From positions 1-64,000 of the forward strand of contig NW_021836178.1 in NCBI RefSeq assembly GCF_006345805.1: DNA of 64,000 nt, given 5' to 3'. Shown in pieces: positions 12,498-56,750 of the stretch (its first letter is position 1; every line of letters begins with the position of its first letter). The translations under genes and the position numbers were made by a program. The notes beneath the pieces are model-generated. The model worked only from the letters and a program-made list of their open reading frames with translations, ran no database searches and was not told the DNA's origin. This DNA comes from Octopus sinensis (taxonomy: Eukaryota).

Positions 12498-13518
12498 ATG
12501 TGTTGGCCAATTTATCGACAAATACCTTCTAATTGGTGGGCACTTAAAAGCCAAAGAAATAGCAAACTTTTACTACACCGGAAATATTTGTATAATACAG
12601 ATAGAAAAAAAGACGGTCTTACCTATTGGAGGTGCAGAAATCGAGAATGCAGGGCGAGGTGCACGGTGGATGCTCAAAACAAGTTGAGCACAAAAATGCT
12701 CATAACCATGGCCCTTTGAGGATCATGAAATAAAAAGCATGAAACTAGTTTCTGACCTGAAAGATGCCGCAAAGGCGTCAGAAGACAGAACTATGAATGT
12801 GGTGTCAAGAAGCCTCATTGGAGCCAATGTTGACGTCATTAAAATATTGCCAAAGGAACGTTCATTGACTCGTCTCGTTCAACGGGAAAGAGAAACACTG
12901 ATACCAAATTTGTTCCGACCATTCCTAAAATTCCTGAAAGTTTGCGATACAGAAAATGCCTACTGTGCATTATTTGAAGGAATAAAGACACTTGTTGTTA
13001 CTTCACCAGCAATTATTTTAATTGATTTTGAAAAGGGGTTAATTAACTCCACAAAATCAGTTTTTTCGTCGTCTAATGTATTTGGCTGCAATTTCCATTT
13101 CGGCCAAATGATATGGCGGAAAATACAATGTCTTGGTCTTGTGGGAGCCTACAAAGACGTTTCATCGTGGGAACGAAAATTATTGAGGAAATGCTACCAT
13201 TTAGCTTTCATCACTGTGGAAAATGTTTTATTGAAATTTGAAAAAATTTTCTTGATGCGACAGGAATGGAGTGTCTGCGACAGACTGCAAAAGGAACTTG
13301 AACTGAGAATAGCATGTGAAAATTTGCATGAATTGAAGTAGATTGCTATTTTAAGCTAATTGATGGTTGATTTGCTTTAAAAGTTCAGAATAAAAAGTAA
13401 TTGTTTTAAAATTTTATTTTATTTACCCTTAAAATATTTTTCTTCGTAGACGAGTTGTCGCCAAATAAATTTAGGCGAGTTAGGCGACAACTCGCCTTAG
13501 ACGAGTTGTCGCTCAACG
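12498..13518 (+). mobile_element. Deleted Mutator-like (FLYWCH-MULE) transposon
   Basis: FLYWCH motif YLYNTDRKKDGLTYWRCRNRECRARC and MULE motifs IDFEKGLINS and GCNFHFGQMIWRKIQ. Right end carries repeated TAGACGAGTTGTCG (13447-13517). Confidence 0.85.
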
Positions 13519-13644: not shown

Positions 13645-13685
13645 CTATTCTTTGAGATTTCAGTGGGTAGTTAAAAGTCTAAGTT

Positions 13686-13869
13686 TTTTTTTATTTCTTA
13701 AAAGAAAACAGAGAGAAAAGAGAGTTAACAAGAGGACTTCCCCGCCTCGTAGATGGAGAAACAGAAACAGTTTCCACGTACAATGGCAAGGGAAATCCTC
13801 TGTAGGAGCTATCCACACTCACGTGTGTCGTTTCTCTTGCAAGAAATCAGACGACCCAGCTTTTTGAGG
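13686..13869 (-). mobile_element. Short 5'-truncated CRE-clade insertion with A-tail and 12-bp TSD
   Basis: Encodes LLQRISLAIVRGNC. The T-run at 13684-13692 is the tail. TSD AAAGTCTAAGTT at 13674-13685 and 13870-13881. Confidence 0.8.
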
Positions 13870-13945
13870 AAAGTCTAAGTTGACAAATTCTTTCTCTGTA
13901 CGTGATTATCGACTAGTTTATTCATGAAGGATATGAACACTAAAT

Positions 13946-14528
13946 AGAAATTTATAACATTTATTTCTTTTAACCGAAAAAAATCAAAATGAAACTAAAG
14001 TTAGTTAGAGGACTTCCCCGCTTCGTAGATGGAGAAACAGTTTCCTCGTACGATGGCAAGGGAAATCTTCTGAAGGAGCCAGCCCGTCTCGCGTGTGTCA
14101 TTTCTCTTCAGAGAGATCAGACGTCCGAGCTTATAGAGGAAAGTCAAAGAATTTTCCCCAATAACCCCTGAAGTCTCGACAGCAACAGGGGCGAATAGAT
14201 ATCGCTCCGAGAGTCTCTATATTTCGCAATCTTAAGCTTTTCTGTTCTAAGGGACACCGAACCGGCTGCGACGGCTGACAAGGGAAGATTAGGTTCAGAG
14301 AAAGTATCTGAACATGTCGCGTCCCAAAGACGCAGTGCTGGGCGGCACCACGCCACACAGCCTTAAATAACGTTGTCTTGAGGGGTCTCAATGCTGCCGG
14401 TATTTCATCAATCCTAGAACCGGCTGGGCTTGCTAGGGGAGACGGAAAAAGACCTGCCGGTCTATCCAACTTCCCTTTGAGTTCGGCAAGTCGCTGATTT
14501 GGGACGCGACATGTTCAGATACTTTCTC
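13946..14528 (-). mobile_element. CRE-clade insertion with inverted 5' segment and 12-bp TSD
   Basis: The minus-strand part 13946-14328 encodes [11 protein letters not shown]...RISLAIVRGN. The plus-strand part 14329-14533 encodes RSAGR...[13 protein letters not shown]...[26 protein letters not shown] at 13934-13945 and 14529-14540. Confidence 0.88.
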
Positions 14529-14779
14529 TGAACACTAAATTGTTTGCATGATTGTCGTTTAAATTACATTTTACAGGAATGCCACATTTATTAAAGCAGG
14601 GGAATATTGTATTTTATTTCACGTCCATCCAAGCTGTGCTAATCCATGAATAGCATCTAAAAAAGAATTTTTGACAAGTGGTGTCGCAAAAGAGGAACAA
14701 GGAAATATTAGAATGAATAATCAAGTTAGTTAATTAATGACATCCGAATATTTAATTAAATGCAATCCTTCCAGCATAG

Positions 14780-15555
14780 AAGATTGCTTGAGAAAGGGTG
14801 GCGGCAGAGGTTGCAATCTACTGTGAGTAAACTAACACACCATATGCTCCCCCAGTGATTAGTGCTGGCTCTTGTAATGTACCTGCATTTATTTCTACGC
14901 TTTTGTCAGTTAGAATAATATTTAGATTATTCTTTACTACCGTAATCCTTATATGTGAATATATAACTATACATTATGGGTTGGGACTCATTTGTGAATA
15001 TGCACATTTTCTGGCTTTTATCAATACTACAAAGTCAGTAAGTTAAAATACGCAATTTGGAGGGGACGACTGATTCTTGGCTTCTGGAAAATGGCATTTA
15101 ATGGCATGTAACTTTAATGTTAGAATAAGATTGTACAGAGATGATAATGCGACTAAACGTGCAAGGCATCTATATTCAGGTAACGAAGGCCACTACAGCG
15201 ATATAGTGATCTAATGATTCAAAATATTTAAATGTACATATAGTTTAGGTGAATCAACCCATCAAACGAGGTTGTTAGTATTCTCTTCAGTGAGTCTTCA
15301 TTACATTGACTAGTGTTAATAAAATGTTGATTACAATCGGTTCAAGTTTGTTAAATTCGAGAATATTTCTCCATTTGGAAATGTAACGTTTCTAGAAATT
15401 AAAATTGATGTTGTATGTCCCGCAGCATTTTTCTCCATTGAATTTACAGTTTTCCAAAAGTCTAATTCAAATAAGCAATTTTTCAAAAACCGTTGTGTTA
15501 AGTCACAATTGCTTTGGATCACTAAGTGAATTAAAAGTAGAACAAGTAGAAACAT
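14780..15555 (-). CDS. Putative secreted or membrane leucine-rich-repeat protein, multi-exon; 3' end uncertain
   Basis: Signal-peptide-like MFLLVLLLIHLVIQSNC, then IFSNLTNLNRL, SLKRILTTSFDGLIHLNYI and SLYRCSGLRYLNIDA separated by ~25-27 nt GT-AG introns, roughly one LRR per exon as in glycoprotein-hormone-receptor-type ectodomains. Confidence 0.5.
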
Positions 15556-15804: not shown

Positions 15805-15930
15805 TGTTCTGTTCACAATTACATCGAGAAAATCTAACAGCATTGGTTACAATCTAAAAATAGCCACTGAACGTTAAGTGTGTCGATTGAAGCCATAGTT
15901 TGTGACTATATCACAAACTTTTTATAGCTC
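15805..15930. repeat. About 125-bp direct repeat, copy 2
   Basis: Near-identical to 13519-13644. Confidence 0.9.
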
Positions 15931-17598: not shown

Positions 17599-19460
17599 TC
17601 ATAATCTTAAGCTGCTGATGATCGAGAAGACGTTGCCCCTCAGGATCGCAATGGATATTCTTTGGAACAACCATTGCTTCTCCAGAGGCTCTCTCCGTCT
17701 TCTCGAGATCAGATTCCCGATTTTCACAACGAGTTCAAACGATTTTTGGCTCATGGCCCCGGAGGTTTCTACAGATATTGGGGAGAAGATAAAGTTGTCC
17801 AGCAGGTTGGAATATTTCTGAGCTTTATGTACCTCAGCCTTCTCAGCGGCTGAGCCTGGACTGATCGCGGAGTCAACTATATTGGTCTTTGAGAAGGTGT
17901 CTGTGCACGTGGAGTCCAACGCGAGGCATTTCCCATTACTCCACGGGAAAATGGTGACTCCATCTGGGCGTTTACCGTCTCCACGGTCAAGCCCGACGGG
18001 TTCCAGTTCTGTCGGGAATCCAGCTGCTTGTAAAGCAGCCGAAATAGTCTCGTTGATAGCGGAGTGTCTGGGAGCACGGCCAGCACTCCTTCTGCATGAC
18101 AGGGGATGTAGTCCTTTGGTATCGACTTTACTCCCACATCGGCATTGGCCCCCCGAACAGACATTAAGTCCCAAGCGCATTGCTACGCCAATCTTCACAC
18201 AGTCATTATCGAGAAGGGTTCCAGATTGGGAGCAAGGGAGGGCATTAAGCCACGCCCCACTTTCAGGTCTGGCAGCGGCACCGAAACAAGCGAGGCGATG
18301 CTGATCCAATGTAGGTCTGATTGCTTCCATTTTAGCTTGCTGGAGATATCATCCCATTCCCATTGGCGTGAAATGTTAGATGGAATGGCCAATCCAGATC
18401 CCTTCCAGAATTCGCAAGCTCCAGAGAAAACTCGGTCCTCTTCCAATCCGCGAGAGTTACGTAGGATTTGGGTTATGAGGGCTTGGGAGCTCGCACGTGA
18501 GGAGAGGAATGCAGGAAGAGCCATGTCCAGAGGTGAACGGAGTCCAACTCCGCCAAGGCGTAGAGTAATTTGCAGCAAGTCCAACCAGCGTCGTCAAAGG
18601 ATATGTTTAGGATTTTTTCAGCGGCCAACTTCAGAGAAGTATCGAGCGATTGAAGCATGTCGGATTGTATTGAGCAGTTTGAAGTTCGCAGCAAATATAG
18701 AAGCCTTGGCAACATGAGGTTTGCTCTGAGCACGAAAAATCCGTAGTGAGAATCAAGCAACATGAGCTTATTGTGAAATCAGTGACCCATTGGCTTTCTC
18801 AGATAGCGACTTCTTAAGTGGATTTGGCCCATGGGCGCGCCGAGGAAAGAACATCATCAATGGGTGTGGTTGTCAGCCCCGGCAGGCGAAGTTGCAGCTT
18901 GTTTAGTGCGGAACCGAATTCTTCGTGCGAGCAAGAGATATTTATAAGCTCGCACTTGCTGACGTTTACTTCCAGTCCAATTTCACGGAGGGTGGGAATT
19001 ATGTTGAAAATATCCTCAATCACAGTATCAGAGGGGCCCCCGATGGTTGCATCATCGAGGTACCACAGGTTGAAAAAAGAATCGACTTTCCGTACGACAG
19101 AGTCAATGCCGAGGGCGAACAGCAGTGGACCGATAGGGTCGCCCTGCTGAACTCCTGTGCACGATTTGATAATTTCATCTCCAAAAAGAAGAGAGCTGTC
19201 TGACCCATATGCCAAGTGAACCAAGCCGATAATATCAGGAGCCCTTTCTAAGCAGGTTTCGAGAATCACATCTCTCCTCAGGCTGTTGAATGCATTCTTA
19301 ATGTCCAGTTTTATAGCTAGAACTCCGGGACCATTTGAGTTCCCTTTTTGCGAGGAGAATTCTCTGGTTGCATGCACTGCAGCTTCGCAGCCATTTGGGA
19401 TTCCCACACCCAGCTGAAGTGGCGAAAGTTCGCAGCTGAGTCTCTGTGATGCCCTTCGTG
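17599..19460 (-). mobile_element. CRE-clade RLE retrotransposon, RT and endonuclease, 5'-truncated
   Basis: RT motifs QLGVG, KLDIKNAFNS, GVQQGDPIGPLLF and WYLDDATIGG. Also GGVGLRS, SGAWLNALP, CRCG..HPLSC..RH, KRPDG, EVHKAQKY and QRISIAILRGN. Confidence 0.93.
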
Positions 19461-21282: not shown

Positions 21283-21604
21283 CTTTTACTGGGCACGCTT
21301 CGAGGCAGGCCGAGGAGCGAAAGATTCTCAAGTACGGGCACCTCTCCAACTCGCTGTTCTTTACTCCAATTGCCGTGGGAGTCCTCCGGGATCTTCGGCC
21401 CCAAGACACTCCGCTTCCTTCGCTCGCTCGGTCGACGGATTTCAAGGACTAGTCACGATCCAAGAGAGTTTTCTTGGCTCCTGGAACGTCTGTCGATTGC
21501 TGTGATCCGAGGGAACGGCTTCGCCATTCGCGATGCTGGCCAGGTGTCTCGTGAAGGCTTTAATTAACTTAGCTATCTTTATTTCTTTCTTGTTAAAAAA
21601 AAAA
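21283..21604 (+). mobile_element. CRE-clade 3' fragment with poly(A) tail
   Basis: AEERKILKY...ESSGIFGPKTLRFLRSLGRRI...WLLERLSIAVIRGN, followed by an A-run at 21595-21604. Confidence 0.85.
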
Positions 21605-23944: not shown

Positions 23945-24215
23945 GTCGCATCAGAGTTGGAACCGGTCGGCCTGGTTCGGGAGGATGGTAAACGTCTTGA
24001 CGGCCTAACAACATTCCCCTTCGAAAATGGCAAGTCACTCATCTGATACGCAAATTGCACGAACATTTTCTCCGCCGAAAACATCTTTACGTCAGCCGTC
24101 AACTAACTCGGCCAAAACGCTAAAAATCGAGAAATACAGTGGATTATCTCACCGTCATATCATTGCTCCGATCGCAGTGGAGACGTCGGGAGTCTTCGGT
24201 CACAGAACTAAAGAT
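23945..24215 (+). mobile_element. CRE-clade endonuclease fragment
   Basis: [29 protein letters not shown]...EKYSGL...IAPIAVETSGVFG. Confidence 0.85.
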
Positions 24216-24257
24216 TATTAATTTATATGTTCTTAATGAATGAAAGACAAATAACAA

Positions 24258-36079: not shown

Positions 36080-36350
36080 CAGAGGGGAAATTCTGGGTGG
36101 CTAAAACTCGCACCCTCCTGCGGAAAGTACCGCATGTGTGTTGCCACGGAGAATGGCGATGGATATCCGCTGCAATAGCCACGAAACCTCGCGTGGCTCT
36201 TTCGTCCTGTGGGCCAATTTCCTTCCGATGTCGCTGATGAAGGCCGAGGTTAGAGGCCCTGCGACGCCCGATGTCTCCAAAGCGATTGGTGCGAATATAA
36301 AACGGCGTCCAAGTTCTTGGTATTTTTTAATTTTGGCCGTCTCAGCCTTG
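36080..36350 (-). mobile_element. CRE-clade 3' fragment
   Basis: KAETAKIKKYQELGRRFIFAPIALETSGVAGP...WLLQRISIAILRGN. Confidence 0.85.
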
Positions 36351-37884: not shown

Positions 37885-38150
37885 TTATTTTGAACTGCCG
37901 GCGCATAAGATGGCCTGGCAGTTCCCTCGGACGATCGCCAACGAGACTCTTTGGAAAAGATGACGAGTTTCGTTGGGATCCTTGTTTCGTCTGGCAATCT
38001 TCGACCCCAGCCGACGAAGGAAAGAAAGCGATTCTGGGCCGATGACCCCGGATGTCTCCATGGCTACTGGCACAAAATGTGGTTTCTGGCCAGGTACGAG
38101 TATTTTCTTGTTTTTGTGACCTCCGCATGTCTTGCCGCTGAGCCGGGCTC
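37885..38150 (-). mobile_element. CRE-clade 3' fragment
   Basis: HFVPVAMETSGVIGPESLSFLRRLG...LFQRVSLAIVRGNC. Confidence 0.85.
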
Positions 38151-39199: not shown

Positions 39200-39801
39200 C
39201 CTACCTCGACGGCGAACAGATACCGTTCAGAGAGCTCCTTGTACTTTCCAATCTTCATCTTCTCGGCTTTGCAAGAGACTGAGCCAGGCTCGACAGCTGA
39301 AGAAGGAAGGTTGAGCTCCGAGAAAGTGTCTGAACACGTCGCATCCCATAACAGAGACTTGCCGAACTCAAACGGGAAAGTCGATAGGCCGTCGGGTCTT
39401 TTTCCGTCTCCCTTTGCAAGCCCAACGGGTTCAAGGATTGATGGAATTCCAGCGGCCGTGAGCCCCCTCTGAATAACGTCGTCGAGTGCTGCATGGCGTG
39501 GTGCGCGCCCTGCACTGCGACGACAGGAAAGGGGATGTAGACCAAAACGGTCAATGACAGCACCACAACGACATTTGTGTATTTCGCAAATTTCCAATCC
39601 GAGACGCAATGATAATCCAATTCGAAGGCAATCTTTGTCTAATAGGTTACCGGTGGCAGGGACAGGGAGAGCATCCAGCCAGGCCCCACTCCCTGTGCAG
39701 CAGCCTGCGCGGAGACATGCAAGTCGAAATTTTTGCGTAGATGTACGTCAAGAGCTTCACATGAGATGGCATCCCATTGAGCTTGGATACACGGGTCACT
39801 G
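39200..39801 (-). mobile_element. CRE-clade fragment (zinc knuckle and endonuclease)
   Basis: SGAWLDALPVP, CRCG..HPLSCRRSAGRAPRH, EPVGLAKGDGKRPDG and [11 protein letters not shown]. Same subfamily as 13946-14528. Confidence 0.9.
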
Positions 39802-40239
39802 AATCACTAGAATTTTATGGATCTGAAAATGACTCTCAATTATATGATAGATGTAATTCTGAAATTGTTAATTATAACATCAAAGAAACAATGAATATTT
39901 TAGAAAATTCATTATTCAATGTATGTCCCAAAGCATTTGGTGAATATTATGTTTTTAAAAAAGCTAGCAAAACTGTTTTTATTTACGATCTGGATTTTAG
40001 AACAATATTTTTTAGGTTACTCTTTTGTTACGTTGTGATCGTCCATTTAAAAAAAACAAAAGAAACACAAACACAAAAGAAACTACAACAGGAACTTTTA
40101 GCAGCAAGAAAATTTTGGAAACAAAATTTTGTATGGTTTTTATTTTTGATAGATATTAAAATTTTCTTAATTTTTAGTTATCCAATTATTAATAGAAAAT
40201 TTAATAAATTTTCTAAATGTGAGCACGTGGGTGACATAC

Positions 40240-41160
40240 TTTGTTGTCATGCTACAGTAGATCTTTATTTTTATTTAATTGGATTCAGAAGGAATATTTC
40301 ACGATGTAGTTTCATTTAATGGTTAAATTATTTGAAATTTCATAATTTTGTAATGTTTGTGAGTTTATTTCTTCAATCTGTCTATTCCACTTATTTTTAA
40401 ATTTGAAAAATTATTATTTTTGATCTCTATTTATTAAATTCCATCTTATTTTTTAATGAAAAGTTCTATTCTGTATAATTTTATGGAACAATTTTATTAT
40501 TTGTGGCTGGATTTTTTTAAAGCATGAGCTGTTTTTAAAATTTTGAGAATATTTTTTCATTTCTATGGTAATTTCGATCCTCCCGTACTTGAACTTCTAG
40601 CTGCAGTAATCTCTAGGCATTCATGTCGGAAATTGACTGCAGCTGTGAAGAATCGGTTTTTATTTTTGGGCATCTAGAGAATAAAATAACGAATGTATAC
40701 TTGTCTAAATGGTTCATCACATATTCGCCATCAGTTGTTGTTTTTTACCTAAAACTAATGCTTCTATAATTTTTAACTACCCGTTTGAGTGATTCTAAAC
40801 ATTTAAATAAATATTTGAAACATTTATTAAAAAACCAAGAGTAAAGTAATTACATTTCTTTTTTATTTTTGTTTTGGAGTAATGTAATAGTTCCCTTTTG
40901 TTCCCAACCATAAATGGAGCCCCATCTGTTGTAATTCCAACTAATTTTGAAAGCGGGAGATTTGATTCTGTTAAAAATTACATTAAATGCAGGAAAACGT
41001 CGGTTCCTGTCACTGTACTCATCAGTGAATATTTTCATAAATTCTTTAAAAATTTGGAATGTTTCGGTTATTCTTCGAACAAATACGACAATTTGAGTTT
41101 CTGTCAGTACTGGTATCCAATGCGATGGAAAAATATTTGAAATTCCCAAAAACTTTTTTT
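40240..41160 (-). mobile_element. hAT (GTF2IRD2-like) transposase relic
   Basis: FKYFSIALDTSTD, TQIVVFVR and LVGITTDGAPFMVG motifs. Confidence 0.7.
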
Positions 41161-41632
41161 AAAGACGGCTGAAGTCGTGAGGCTGAGAGGGATGTTTTCC
41201 TCTGAGAGAATTCCGAACGGCGGGTGTCGATGGCAAAAGGGAACTCGACGAGGCGACAAGCCTGACAGCACCGCGAACATCGCCGTCCATGATTTTGCAA
41301 TTTACTTTTCTGTAAAGGTAGTCGTCATCATACGGGGGTGCAGTCAAATTTGGGCAGTTTGAGTCGAAAGGAGGCTCTGAGCTGGCGAGATAGGCCTGGA
41401 GTCAGCGATGAGAAAAACAGTTCCTGTCGTACGAGGACAGTTCATGTTTGACGGTCGAAGCAAGCGAGGGGGAGGTTTTGTTACTCGATGGGAGAAAGCT
41501 GAGGCCGGAAGAGGCAAAGCAGAACAATCCAAGCCAATGAGATTGCCCGTCGGAGGCCAAAGCGTCATCAATTGCAGTGGACAAAGAGGAAGCAGCTAGG
41601 ATACGAGCAGCTTTTGGGAATAATTTAAACAT
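41160..41632 (-). mobile_element. CRE-clade N-terminal fragment
   Basis: PKAARILAASSL...RKVNCKIMDGDVRGAVRLVASS...LRGKHP, paralogous to 44400-44560. Confidence 0.85.
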
Positions 41633-42394
41633 TAAAAGAAACTACATCGTAAAAATGCCATTTTCCAAAAAAACTGGCGAGCAATAGTCGGTAAACTGTA
41701 TTTGGCAGCTACGGCTTCACGTTCTTAGACAAATTTGAATATTAAATGAATAAATAATTTTTTCTTTTTCTATTGTTTCTTGCTGTTTATCCTCATATTC
41801 ATATGGAAAATGACTTCGATAAGATGAGCGAGAAGGATTCAGTTCAAACTTTCACGGATCCGGACATAAAACATTGTCATGTTCTGCATTATCTTGCCAA
41901 TTAGTCGGGTCTCCGTTTATTAAATATCAATGTCTATTAAATATGCTTGTCCACGTTCGACGTAATTTTCCGTTGTTTCGAGTGGATGGTGACTCAGCAG
42001 GAAGTCAAACTGCACTTTTCAAGTCAGTTGAATGTATCCATTGCCAGTAGATTTTATTCGAGTCACAGGGTTGCAGTCGACTGCCATTTTGTCTTTTTGT
42101 GGCAGTCTTAGCCAGGTTTATACAGCGAGTAATCCGACAGAGCATTTATATTATTGTCAACTGAAATTTGACAGACTACATATCGAGAAAAGCAGTGAGA
42201 CAAGAGTTGACCTGCTCATCACAATTGTCGAGAGTCGGGGATTACTTTTAGTATAGGGGAATAAAAAGAGGTTTATGTTTGCGTTTAGAAGAGTGATCGG
42301 GAAGATGTTTGAAAATGTTCTGAAACAGCTGAAAGAGAAATATGAATGAAATATTATTTAACCTTTCAATTGAAACATTGGATAGTAACCGTTC

Positions 42395-42930
42395 AAATAA
42401 ACTATTTGTCCGCCTGATGTTTTGCTAAAGGACTTAGCCAGACTAATTCCGGCTTTATCCGACATTGGTCTGGTTATTAATTCAAGCAAGTCCGAGATTG
42501 TCAATCTCTCTATTGAGCCATCCCTGTTTAAGAATTCCTTCTCTCTTTTTTGCAAACTCCTTCCTGAGTTGAGACAGACACCTCTGTCTGATCTGGAAAT
42601 TCTGGGGTCACCGATTCTCACCGACTCAGCTACTCGAATCCTCCTTGCCAAGAAAAATCTTATTGCATCTCTTTGTGAAAAACTTTCTGTCATTGATCCT
42701 CATCCTTCATTTTACATTCTCAAGAACTATCTTTTGATCCCAAAAATTGTTTATATCCTGAGGAGCTCACCTTGTTTTTATGCAACCCAAATGCTGGAAT
42801 CTTATGATTCCTTGGTTCGGAGGTCTGCGGAGAAAATTCTCAATGTGCATTTCGACGATATTGCCTGGTGTCAGGCTAAACTTCCTGTGAGTCACGGGGG
42901 TCTGGGCCTCCGTTCTAGTATGGATTTGGA
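42395..42930 (+). mobile_element. CRE-clade RT C-terminal fragment
   Basis: IGLVINSSKSE, ILGSPI, PKIVYILRSSP and LPVSHGGLGLRS. Confidence 0.88.
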
Positions 42931-42932
42931 TT

Positions 42933-44655
42933 TGTACGTCAAGAGCTTCACAAGAAATGGCATCCCATTGAGCTTGGATACACGGGTCACTGGGTCTTTT
43001 GTTGTACAATGAATCCCACAGGTCCAAAGCGGCCACGTGATCAACTGACATTTTTCGTTCAGGTAGGTTTCTGAGAACAATGTCAGTGAGGACACGGGAT
43101 GATGCCGTTGACGAAAGGAAAGCAGGAAGCGCGATAGACACGGGAGAACGGAGTCCAATCCCACCGCGGCTTACAGGCAGGGTGGATTGAATCCAACCCA
43201 GAGGGTCGAAACGTACGTAGCATAGCGACTCTGCTCAGGACTTCAGAATATTTTCAATAACGGAAAGGAGATTTTGTTCGTGAAAACACGGAGAGCTTCT
43301 TAATGTATATAGGAGCTTCGGAGTTGAAAAGTAATTACGGAGAAGAAAGAACCCGACATGAGCGTCGATGAGAGAGAGTCTTTGAATAATGCATGACAGA
43401 ACAGCTGCCTTGTCAATAAGAGTTTGAGACAAAGCCTCGCGACCAATTGGGGAGCCAAGGATGAGGAGGTTTTTTTATCGGTGATCCGCACGCCTTTTAA
43501 AATATCTTCCAGAACGGCCATAGTTTCGACAAAAATTCCGTGTGGGATATTGAGATTTATAACTTCGGATTTGGCAGAGTTTATCTCAAGACCAATAGAT
43601 GAAAGGGCAGGGATAATTACGCGAAGGTCCTCTAGGACAGAGCATGGTGGTCCACATATTGTGGCGTCATCAAGATACCAGATGTTTATAGGGGAAAGGA
43701 CAGAGTGGGCGATGGAATTGACGCAGATTGCAAACAACAGAGGACCAAGAGGATCTCCCTGTTGTACACCGGTCGAAGATACGATAACGGAATCACCGAA
43801 CAAGAGGAGACTTGGTTGAGAGTAAGATAGATGGACCAGACGATAAGCCGAGGGGGCAAGAGCATAGCAGGACTCCAACAGGAAATCTCTTCTGACTGAA
43901 TTAAATGCGTTGGAGATGTCCAGTTTAACCAAAATAAATTCTTCTGGAGTCTCCATTAGTTCCCTTACAGCATGGGCGGCCGACTCACAACCTCCGCTGA
44001 TTCCAACTCCTAATTGCGCGGGCAAAAATTTTTGGGCCAGCTCGGGGACTACTGCGTGGCAGACAAGCTTTCCGGCCAATCTGCGAAAAATATTGCCGAC
44101 GGCGATCGGTCTAACACCATTATCTTTCTTCCCCAGGGCGGTGAGATTAGCAGAAAAAAAAATCGTCCGTGCAAAGTCAGGTAAATCACCCCCGATAAGG
44201 CGGTTGCATAGATCCGTAATAGAAGACAATAGTTGGCGACCAGCCTCAGCAGTTAGGGGAGAAATCAGATCTTTAATGTGTCCTGGTTTTAAACCATCGA
44301 TGCCCCCACTGCTGCTTGGGGAGAAACTTTTGAGTGCCTTCACAACTTGTTTCGCAGAAACTAGTAGTTGTGGAAATGCAATCGAATCAATAGCAGGTGG
44401 TGTGCGGTAATTAACGGGATGCGGAGGGTGTTTAGACCTCAGATTAGACAAAACCGATGGAGAGGGAGATAACAGTCGGTTCGAAGAGGCAACAAGTCTG
44501 ACCGCTCCACGGACATCACCATCCATTAATTTACTAATTACCCTGCGGCGAAAGTAGTTGTCAGGGGAAGTTTCACTGTCCACGGGAGAAGGGGCATCAC
44601 TTTTGTGAGAGTCAGAACGGGAGGAGTCTGAGCGAAGAGAGTCAAACTCTGAATC
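42933..44655 (-). mobile_element. CRE-clade RT region
   Basis: GGIDGLKPGHIKDL, KKDNGVRPIAVGNIFRRL, KLDISNAFNS, GVQQGDPLGPLLF, WYLDDATICG, PKLLYTLRSSP and GGIGLRS. Confidence 0.93.
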
Positions 44656-44789
44656 ACTTATATTTGAAAATTGAGTTATATTCAACAAAAGAACTCGTCT
44701 AAAATTGCGTTTTTCAAAAAATGAAATGGAACTGAAGCTATAATTTATTGAAGTAAAATTTATTATAGGCTGAGTGTAGACGCACTGCT

Positions 44790-45300
44790 GACCATATCCC
44801 GCGGCACACACCTCTAAATGACCTTATCAGAAGGGCTTTGGAAGTTGCCGGTATATCCCCTCCATACCTGAACCCACGGAAATCCATCGGGGAAATGTGA
44901 AGAGACCAGACAGGATCAATGTGTTTCCCTTCAACAGAAGAAAACCACTCACCTGGGACGTAACGTGTGTGGACTCGTTCTCGCCTCAGAACCTGCTGAT
45001 GCCCTCATCCATTCCAGGATCAATTGTCCCAACTGCTGAATGCAAAAAGATGCGGAAGTACTTTTCGCTCGCGGAGAAGTACCATTTTTTTCCTTTCGCA
45101 CTTGAGACTTCCGGTTCCATGGGAGGAAAGGCAATCAGGTTCGTTTAGAAGATCTAGATGTGTACATTCACAGGCGACGCCAGCGAATCAAGATGGTTTT
45201 ATGCGCGAAAATCCATTGTGAAAGTACGGTCTAACTCTTTCTCGACCGTGTCAGCCTCTCGCTTGGCAAGATACGCACGTTTATTAACTTAATGTTGCAT
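44790..45300 (+). mobile_element. CRE-clade endonuclease fragment
   Basis: PRHTPLNDLIRRALEVAGIPSI.EP...KRPDRINVFPF..WDVTCVDSF...AECKKMRKY..FPFALETSG. Confidence 0.85.
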
Positions 45301-56549: not shown

Positions 56550-56750
56550 ATGGTTTGGGACTTGTGTATTTCAGACGTTTTTGAGTTTGCCCCCCTTGTA
56601 TTCGGAACCTCAGGAATTGTCGGCGAGGCCGCGTCTCAACTCCTCACTGACATTGTTAGAAGAATTTCCTTAAAAACAAACAACGGAAGGAGACGAACTG
56701 GCTCTTTTAGCAAATCTCGGTCGCCGTGCTCCGCGGAAACTGCGGCGTAG
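56550..56750 (+). mobile_element. CRE-clade 3' relic
   Basis: VWDLC, FAPLVFGTSGIVGE and ISVAVLRGNC. Confidence 0.75.

Follow-up and report, generated by a model that had tools for sequence, protein, structure and literature searches.

Structure of the inverted insertion

The window, which is the whole 64,000-nt stretch of Octopus sinensis contig NW_021836178.1 that we analysed, contains a retrotransposon insertion bounded by two copies of a 12-nt TSD, TGAACACTAAAT, and embedded in a dispersed host repeat (Table 1). Between the TSD copies lie a 3′ segment of the element (segment A) and an inverted segment from further upstream (segment B). In intact family copies found by a genome search, the two segments follow on from each other on one strand, with an overlap, whereas in the window they are opposed. 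The stretch common to both segments forms an inverted pair of 36 nt that is 100% complementary; the right TSD begins with the outer 5 nt of this pair (TGAAC), which leaves 31 nt of unambiguous element sequence on that side. Microhomology amounts to 1 nt at the inner junction; at the outer one it comprises 5 nt, a bulge and 4 nt more. The TSD at both ends, the minus-strand 3′ segment with its inverted upstream partner and the perfect 36-bp duplication had all been named in a preliminary description of the window, and each was recovered as it had been described.

Table 1. Features of the inverted insertion and its flanks (window positions)
Feature	Position	Strand	Remarks
Host dispersed repeat, left flank	about 13870..13933		
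TSD copy at the element's 3′ end	13934..13945		single in 11 exact paralogous empty sites
Segment A, whole	13946..14328	-	reference position 2855 to 3′ end
3′ UTR and A/T-rich tail	13946..14000	-	first part common to copy L067; pure poly-A absent
Segment A coding part: C-terminal end of RLE domain to stop codon	14001..14328	-	98-99% to family copies; tblastn match to full ORF
Overlap copy 1, 5′ end of segment A	14293..14328	-	inverted pair
Segment B, inverted upstream part; RLE region RH..E..KRP[D]	14329..14533	+	205 nt; reference 2683-2890; 95-98% to family copies; 3′-most point at outer TSD
Overlap copy 2, 3′-most end of segment B	14498..14533	+	inverted pair
TSD copy at inverted end, putative second primer	14529..14540		14529-14533 common with element
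Host dispersed repeat, right flank	14541..15100		~85% identity to many paralogues

The overlap stretch is identical in both arms and contains no diagnostic variants, and each arm has its near relatives among the same subfamily copies. Three frameshifts (about 14213, 14343 and 14472) probably reflect sequence errors in the window contig. About 50 bp away, in the same host repeat, lies an independent minus-strand 3′-end insertion of a related family, F2, at 13674-13881 with its own 12-nt TSD (13674-13685 and 13870-13881); host-repeat paralogues have neither insertion. At 13441-13517, nested short inverted and direct repeats lie at the border of a small repeat, which is found again at 15805-15930.

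A second contig and empty paralogous sites

The insertion and its inverted upstream part are real. A second contig, C12463 (L002), has identical junctions, and its insert differs from the window's only by 1-nt homopolymer indels. Because its flanks are 27 substitutions in 5.6 kb (~0.5%) from those of the window, with larger indels besides, C12463 is likely the other haplotype of the window locus. The preliminary description had proposed a search for an empty allele with a single 12-mer. Among 13 paralogues of the host repeat, the exact single 12-mer stands between the flanks in 11 and a 1-nt variant in one, while the site is not covered in the thirteenth. The single 12-mer was thus found in paralogues but not in a true empty allele, as a pattern search of the genome returned two exact matches that were both filled sites.

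An assembly or fold-back read chimera is an extremely improbable source of the inversion. In its favor, the assembly has homopolymer errors, and no junction-spanning read was obtained from three public contig sets of one sample; these sets contain the joints of the intact element and of the empty site and leave the inversion junctions unspanned, which is no evidence either way because the best set contains only 0.30 of the words. A chimera would, however, have to recur with the same junctions in two contigs whose flanks differ by ~0.5% in substitutions, and it is at odds with the intact TSDs, the empty paralogues and five further inverted copies in the genome, each of which is present in one contig.

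A young family of single-ORF RLE elements

The inserted sequence is the 3′ end of a ~3.2-kb LINE with a single ORF, from a young family. A full copy of ~3.2 kb (L046) has one intact ORF of 978 aa, in which Pfam finds an RT (RVT_1, E 6e-16) and a weak PHD finger only, and no APE domain. The protein has YLDD at residues 488-491, and R2 proteins are its best matches in a PDB sequence search (E 5e-8). Its C terminus carries a CCHC motif (C796-C798-H808-C812) followed by R821-H822, E843, RPD at 854-856, D872 and K902; the CCHC and PD-(D/E)xK residues are at least 90% conserved in an alignment of 86 proteins (the query and 85 of at least 120 homologues). Among the matches listed, the homologues carrying names come from various invertebrates, and atlas searches with the protein led to PHD/RT clusters. 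With a non-LTR RT, a single ORF without APE and a conserved C-terminal CCHC and endonuclease motif, the predicted protein identifies the element as an RLE-type non-LTR retrotransposon, in agreement with the preliminary description. From motif resemblance, it may belong to the CRE clade.

The accessible text of PMC12857005 gives the RLE motif for CRE1/2, SLACS, MoTeR and FoTeR. As excerpted there, CRE-group elements share with the octopus element a single ORF with the order RT, CCHC, RH, E, RPD and D/E..K, and the octopus spacers are 1-2 residues off the published motif; the octopus element differs by its N-terminal PHD finger. According to the available part of PMC4640811, it is RT phylogeny that delimits the CRE clade, and CRE-clade elements are mostly target-specific, whereas the octopus element occupies dispersed sites and a fixed target was not found. 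The called TSDs of the census copies start with AAT in 28 of 61 cases and with AAT, ATT or AAA in 45 of 61. We also considered TGACA as a target motif and rejected it, as it was not enriched (12/61 versus 11/57).

The window is rich in fragments of such elements. A minus-strand copy of F3/F4 type (42933-44648 and 39214-39801, within 39214-44648) is interrupted by ~3 kb of other sequence that contains another RLE-LINE fragment (41169-41619). Fragments of distant RLE-LINE families lie at 17620-19460, 21379-21552, 23945-24218, 36116-36349, 37891-38076, 42401-42916, 44772-45262 and 56568-56743. F3 has its 5′ part in common with the insert's family, F1, and a different 3′ end, and F4-like copies are unlike F3 upstream; this mosaic look, seen in L105/L104 versus L046 and in L169, L196 and L225, suggests inter-family recombination or template switching. 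Past the stop codon, the 3′ tails of F1 copies (L053-L072) vary by subgroup, often with extra sequence before or instead of poly-A that resembles read-through or 3′ transduction.

Inverted copies across the genome

We conducted a census of 3′-anchored copies of F1 and its relatives F2 and F3/F4 in the window's genome. The census drew on the 100 listed of 105 pattern matches, and four copies without a 3′ anchor (L084, L085, L093 and L104) stand outside the count. The 185 anchor matches correspond to ~143 distinct insertions (17 in F1, 30 in F2 and 96 in F3/F4), an approximate total inasmuch as a second de-duplication again gave 143 with different groupings and de-duplication by 3′ flank alone merges independent insertions that share one host repeat. 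Neighboring independent insertions, separated by between a few and some tens of bases in paralogues of the same host repeats, were seen for L138/L140 and L195, L148 and L197, and L117 and L167. The 5′ junction is visible in 137 copies; in the other six, the 5′ end lies beyond the fetched stretch.

Six of the 137 assessable copies (about 143 in total), the window copy included, are inverted, a share of ~4% (95% interval 1.6-8.9%; Table 2). All six have a TSD of about 11-14 nt, and in all six the inverted arm holds upstream sequence that is missing from segment A. The two arms overlap in five of the six, and the inversion points fall 174-626 nt from the reference 3′ end. The absence of inversions from F2 (0/30 versus 6/113 elsewhere) is not a significant difference (P 0.34). 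The preliminary description had recognized a twin-priming geometry in the window copy and had suggested a scan of related copies for 5′ inversions; with six TSD-flanked cases, this geometry is now more strongly founded than was visible from the window alone.

Table 2. The six inverted copies
Copy	TSD (nt)	Inverted arm	Overlap (nt)	Other junction features
Window copy	12	205 nt	36	
L058	14	223 nt	64	microhomology 3 nt
L106	13	1.8 kb, versus 0.2-kb segment A	~37	
L195	13	~2.85 kb, stops at family 5′ terminus + 2 A	11	
L163	12, beyond nested insertion	136 nt	79	9 extra bases; no microhomology
L183	~11	35 nt	gap ~375	25 extra bases

At the 131 non-inverted junctions, the longest antisense matches followed the distribution in control flanks, with the exception of L050, and we found no sign of hidden short inversions. 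The exception, at about 4430-4465 in L050, is a 16-nt antisense match to element position ~440, situated just upstream of the 5′ junction of this near-full-length F1 copy; it may be a snap-back junction or a chance match.

The census also bears on the explanation that a normal insertion was inverted at a later time through staggered breaks. Such breaks leave inverted duplications as well, and the 36-nt inverted duplication at both ends of the inverted block is what they would produce. Against this, one breakpoint coincides exactly with the TSD edge in 6/6 copies, flank DNA is inverted in none, and the copies are 95-100% identical to family members, by which measure they are young. We consider a later inversion very unlikely.

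Primer complementarity and TSD length

Of all element positions, 0.06% match the target 3′ end exactly over 5 nt. The preliminary description had noted that the target, TGAAC-A-CTAA, matches the element's TGAAC-CTAA with one bulge; this 9/10 pairing stands, and it is reached at 3 of the 3191 positions of the element (at 1 of 580 within the 3′-most 600 nt). In the window copy and L106, the target-to-antisense pairing at the inversion point is the best in the element's last 600 nt, with 9 of 11 positions of the L106 target matching the antisense strand. Across the six copies, complementarity between target and RNA is strong in two (window copy and L106), weak in three (L058, L195 and L183) and absent in one (L163). 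The proposal that inversion points would show primer-RNA complementarity therefore holds strongly for two of the six and is not established as the rule. The outer pairing scores give a combined P of 0.001 with the window copy excluded; the window was selected for its features, and the samples are small.

TSDs are longer in the inverted copies than in the non-inverted ones, of which 56 have a called TSD (P 0.011 in small samples, with TSD calls below 9 nt excluded). This agrees with the requirement for a long overhang that is proposed in the available text of PMC4245944.

Probable twin priming on element RNA

We conclude that the window copy is a 5′-truncated, 5′-inverted RLE LINE insertion, probably made by twin priming on a single element RNA. 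The endonuclease would nick the bottom strand, and the RT would copy ~380 nt starting at the RNA's 3′ end to yield the first cDNA, which we infer to be segment A. The top strand would be nicked 12 nt downstream (11-14 nt across the cases), and the freed 3′ overhang would anneal ~350 nt from the RNA 3′ end through 5 bp, a bulge and 4 bp. The annealed overhang would then prime a second cDNA toward the RNA 5′ end, giving the 205 nt of what would be segment B. As the first cDNA would already extend 36 nt beyond the second priming point, these 36 nt would be copied twice, with strand displacement or fraying of the first hybrid needed. The two cDNA ends would be joined via 1 nt of microhomology, with fill-in by host repair. 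In copies without complementarity, such as L163, second-strand priming may begin at a cleaved end of the RNA.

The most telling case is L195, in which the second arm stops where the RNA would stop: its end at the family 5′ terminus plus two A residues fits RT run-off at the RNA 5′ end. Priming was probably sequential and not simultaneous. Because the first cDNA passes the second priming point in five of six copies, the second nick need only precede the loss of the 5′ part of the RNA, and the view in the preliminary description that both nicks are made early is not required. Sequential priming has also been proposed for L1 in the accessible sections of bioRxiv 2024.08.27.596794.

In the available part of PMC12180492, an RT-dead R2 protein nicks the second strand in vitro, and early nicking is therefore possible. 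The same text places the nicked 3′ end away from the RT site in a post-nicking R2 structure, and its authors consider a bound R2 protein unlikely to extend that end, a view that counts against twin priming by an RLE protein. The modelling of second-strand cleavage by R2Bm as a late event (PMC6895275) counts against it as well, as do the extra, partly templated bases at the inner junctions of L163 (9) and L183 (25), which point to the work of a repair polymerase.

These extra bases, found in two of six copies, and the overlaps in five of six would also fit a cDNA snap-back (hairpin self-priming) with a one-sided deletion through the palindrome center, or templated synthesis of polymerase-theta type. 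Snap-back would be expected to leave identical outer microhomology, R2 proteins yield antisense 5′ junctions that are read as snap-back in the accessible text of PMC11371274, and L050 has its 16-nt antisense match at a 5′ junction. A pure snap-back, however, inverts only sequence that lies within the first cDNA, and the inverted arms extend outside it in 6/6 copies. To rescue the explanation, a second deletion on the same side would have to occur six times, in L195 with 2.8 kb starting exactly at the 5′ terminus. We regard snap-back as unlikely.

Alternatively, twin priming or RNA-templated repair could have been the work, in trans, of an APE-type LINE protein or of a host enzyme that acted on the element RNA. 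In the cell assays described in the available sections of PMC4245944, 5′ inversions came from L1 in human cells and once from Nimb, both APE types, with none from ZfL2-1, and sequence of another RT-type LINE adjoins one octopus copy (L048). On the other hand, inverted and non-inverted copies are alike in tail type and in the A-rich start of their TSDs (AAT, as above), and the family has an intact ORF of its own; action in trans is distinctly unlikely. Each of the four competing explanations (snap-back, action in trans, later inversion and artefact) needs extra coincidences, and twin priming on the element's RNA, presumably by its own protein, remains our preferred reading.

Implications for RLE elements

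In its wider form, twin priming would be a regular pathway (~1/25 insertions) of an early-branching RLE LINE. Rather than a speciality of L1, it would be an ancestral feature of TPRT in which the 3′ overhang measures 12-14 nt. After nicking the second strand, the RLE protein would use RNA that is still present to extend it, sometimes without base pairing, while displacing 10-80 nt of first cDNA. We find the arguments for and against this wider proposal evenly balanced. Twin-primed inserts bear on two questions about RLE LINEs, when the second nick is made and which enzyme extends it. Work on R2 favors late nicking and completion by the host; twin-primed inserts demand that the second strand be nicked before the RNA loses its integrity and that an RT act on the nicked end. 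A young family with a compact, intact ORF of 978 aa offers a direct test system. For R2-based gene writers, the octopus copies also suggest that some of the antisense junctions which junction reads have classed as snap-back merit a recheck with long reads.

Comparison with L1 and R2

Twin priming of mammalian L1 was reportedly proposed by Ostertag and Kazazian in 2001, and Kojima and Okada are said to have treated 5′ inversion as typical of mammalian L1 in 2009. The available texts of PMC2912911, PMC12016303 and bioRxiv 2024.08.27.596794 describe the process for L1. In the literature searched, with subscription papers and Repbase Reports outside its scope, we came upon no account of twin priming for an RLE element: the R2 four-way-junction paper (PMC6895275) mentions it for L1 only, it occurs solely in the reference lists of PMC2718515, PMC6007223 and PMC5389967, it is missing from PMC7367193 and PMC13580325, the MoTeR paper among them, and the FoTeR paper does not mention inversion. 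The best explanation of the octopus copies is thus a known mechanism, recurrent here in an element class for which we found no description of it.

The likeness to L1, as far as the accessible sections of these sources describe it, is close. L1 shows the same TSD-flanked 5′ inversion, with the inverted arm derived from upstream RNA and its 3′-most point at the outer TSD, the same microhomology at the outer junction, a deletion or overlap at the inner junction, TSDs of 10-20 nt and the same clustering of breakpoints toward the 3′ end (bioRxiv 2024.08.27.596794). The octopus element differs in having a C-terminal RLE, no APE and one ORF, and in its inversion rate of ~4% (6/137-143), compared to 18-22% for L1 in the part of PMC12016303 available. 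Of L1 inversions, 42% of the germline and 15% of the somatic ones have overlaps, with a median of 12 nt (PMC12016303, in excerpt), as do 17% of those in tumours, with a median of 22 nt (bioRxiv 2024.08.27.596794, likewise). An excess of overlap junctions in the octopus element was considered and dropped, with P 0.004 against somatic L1 (17%) but P 0.10 against germline L1 (42%); with the window copy excluded, the octopus share (4/5) is not significantly higher than that of germline L1 (44/106, P 0.10). The share of overlaps is therefore not unusual, and only their lengths look long (11, 36, 37, 64 and 79 nt, compared to the L1 medians).

Comparable junctions are those that R2 leaves in PRINT (PMC11371274, in the sections accessible), where a protein of the same RLE type joins the target to antisense element sequence. 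The inverted piece in PRINT is interpreted as having been copied from the first cDNA, whereas the octopus arms cover RNA that the first cDNA did not reach. The R2 tests took place in human cells with a site-specific element; the octopus insertions are natural and dispersed.
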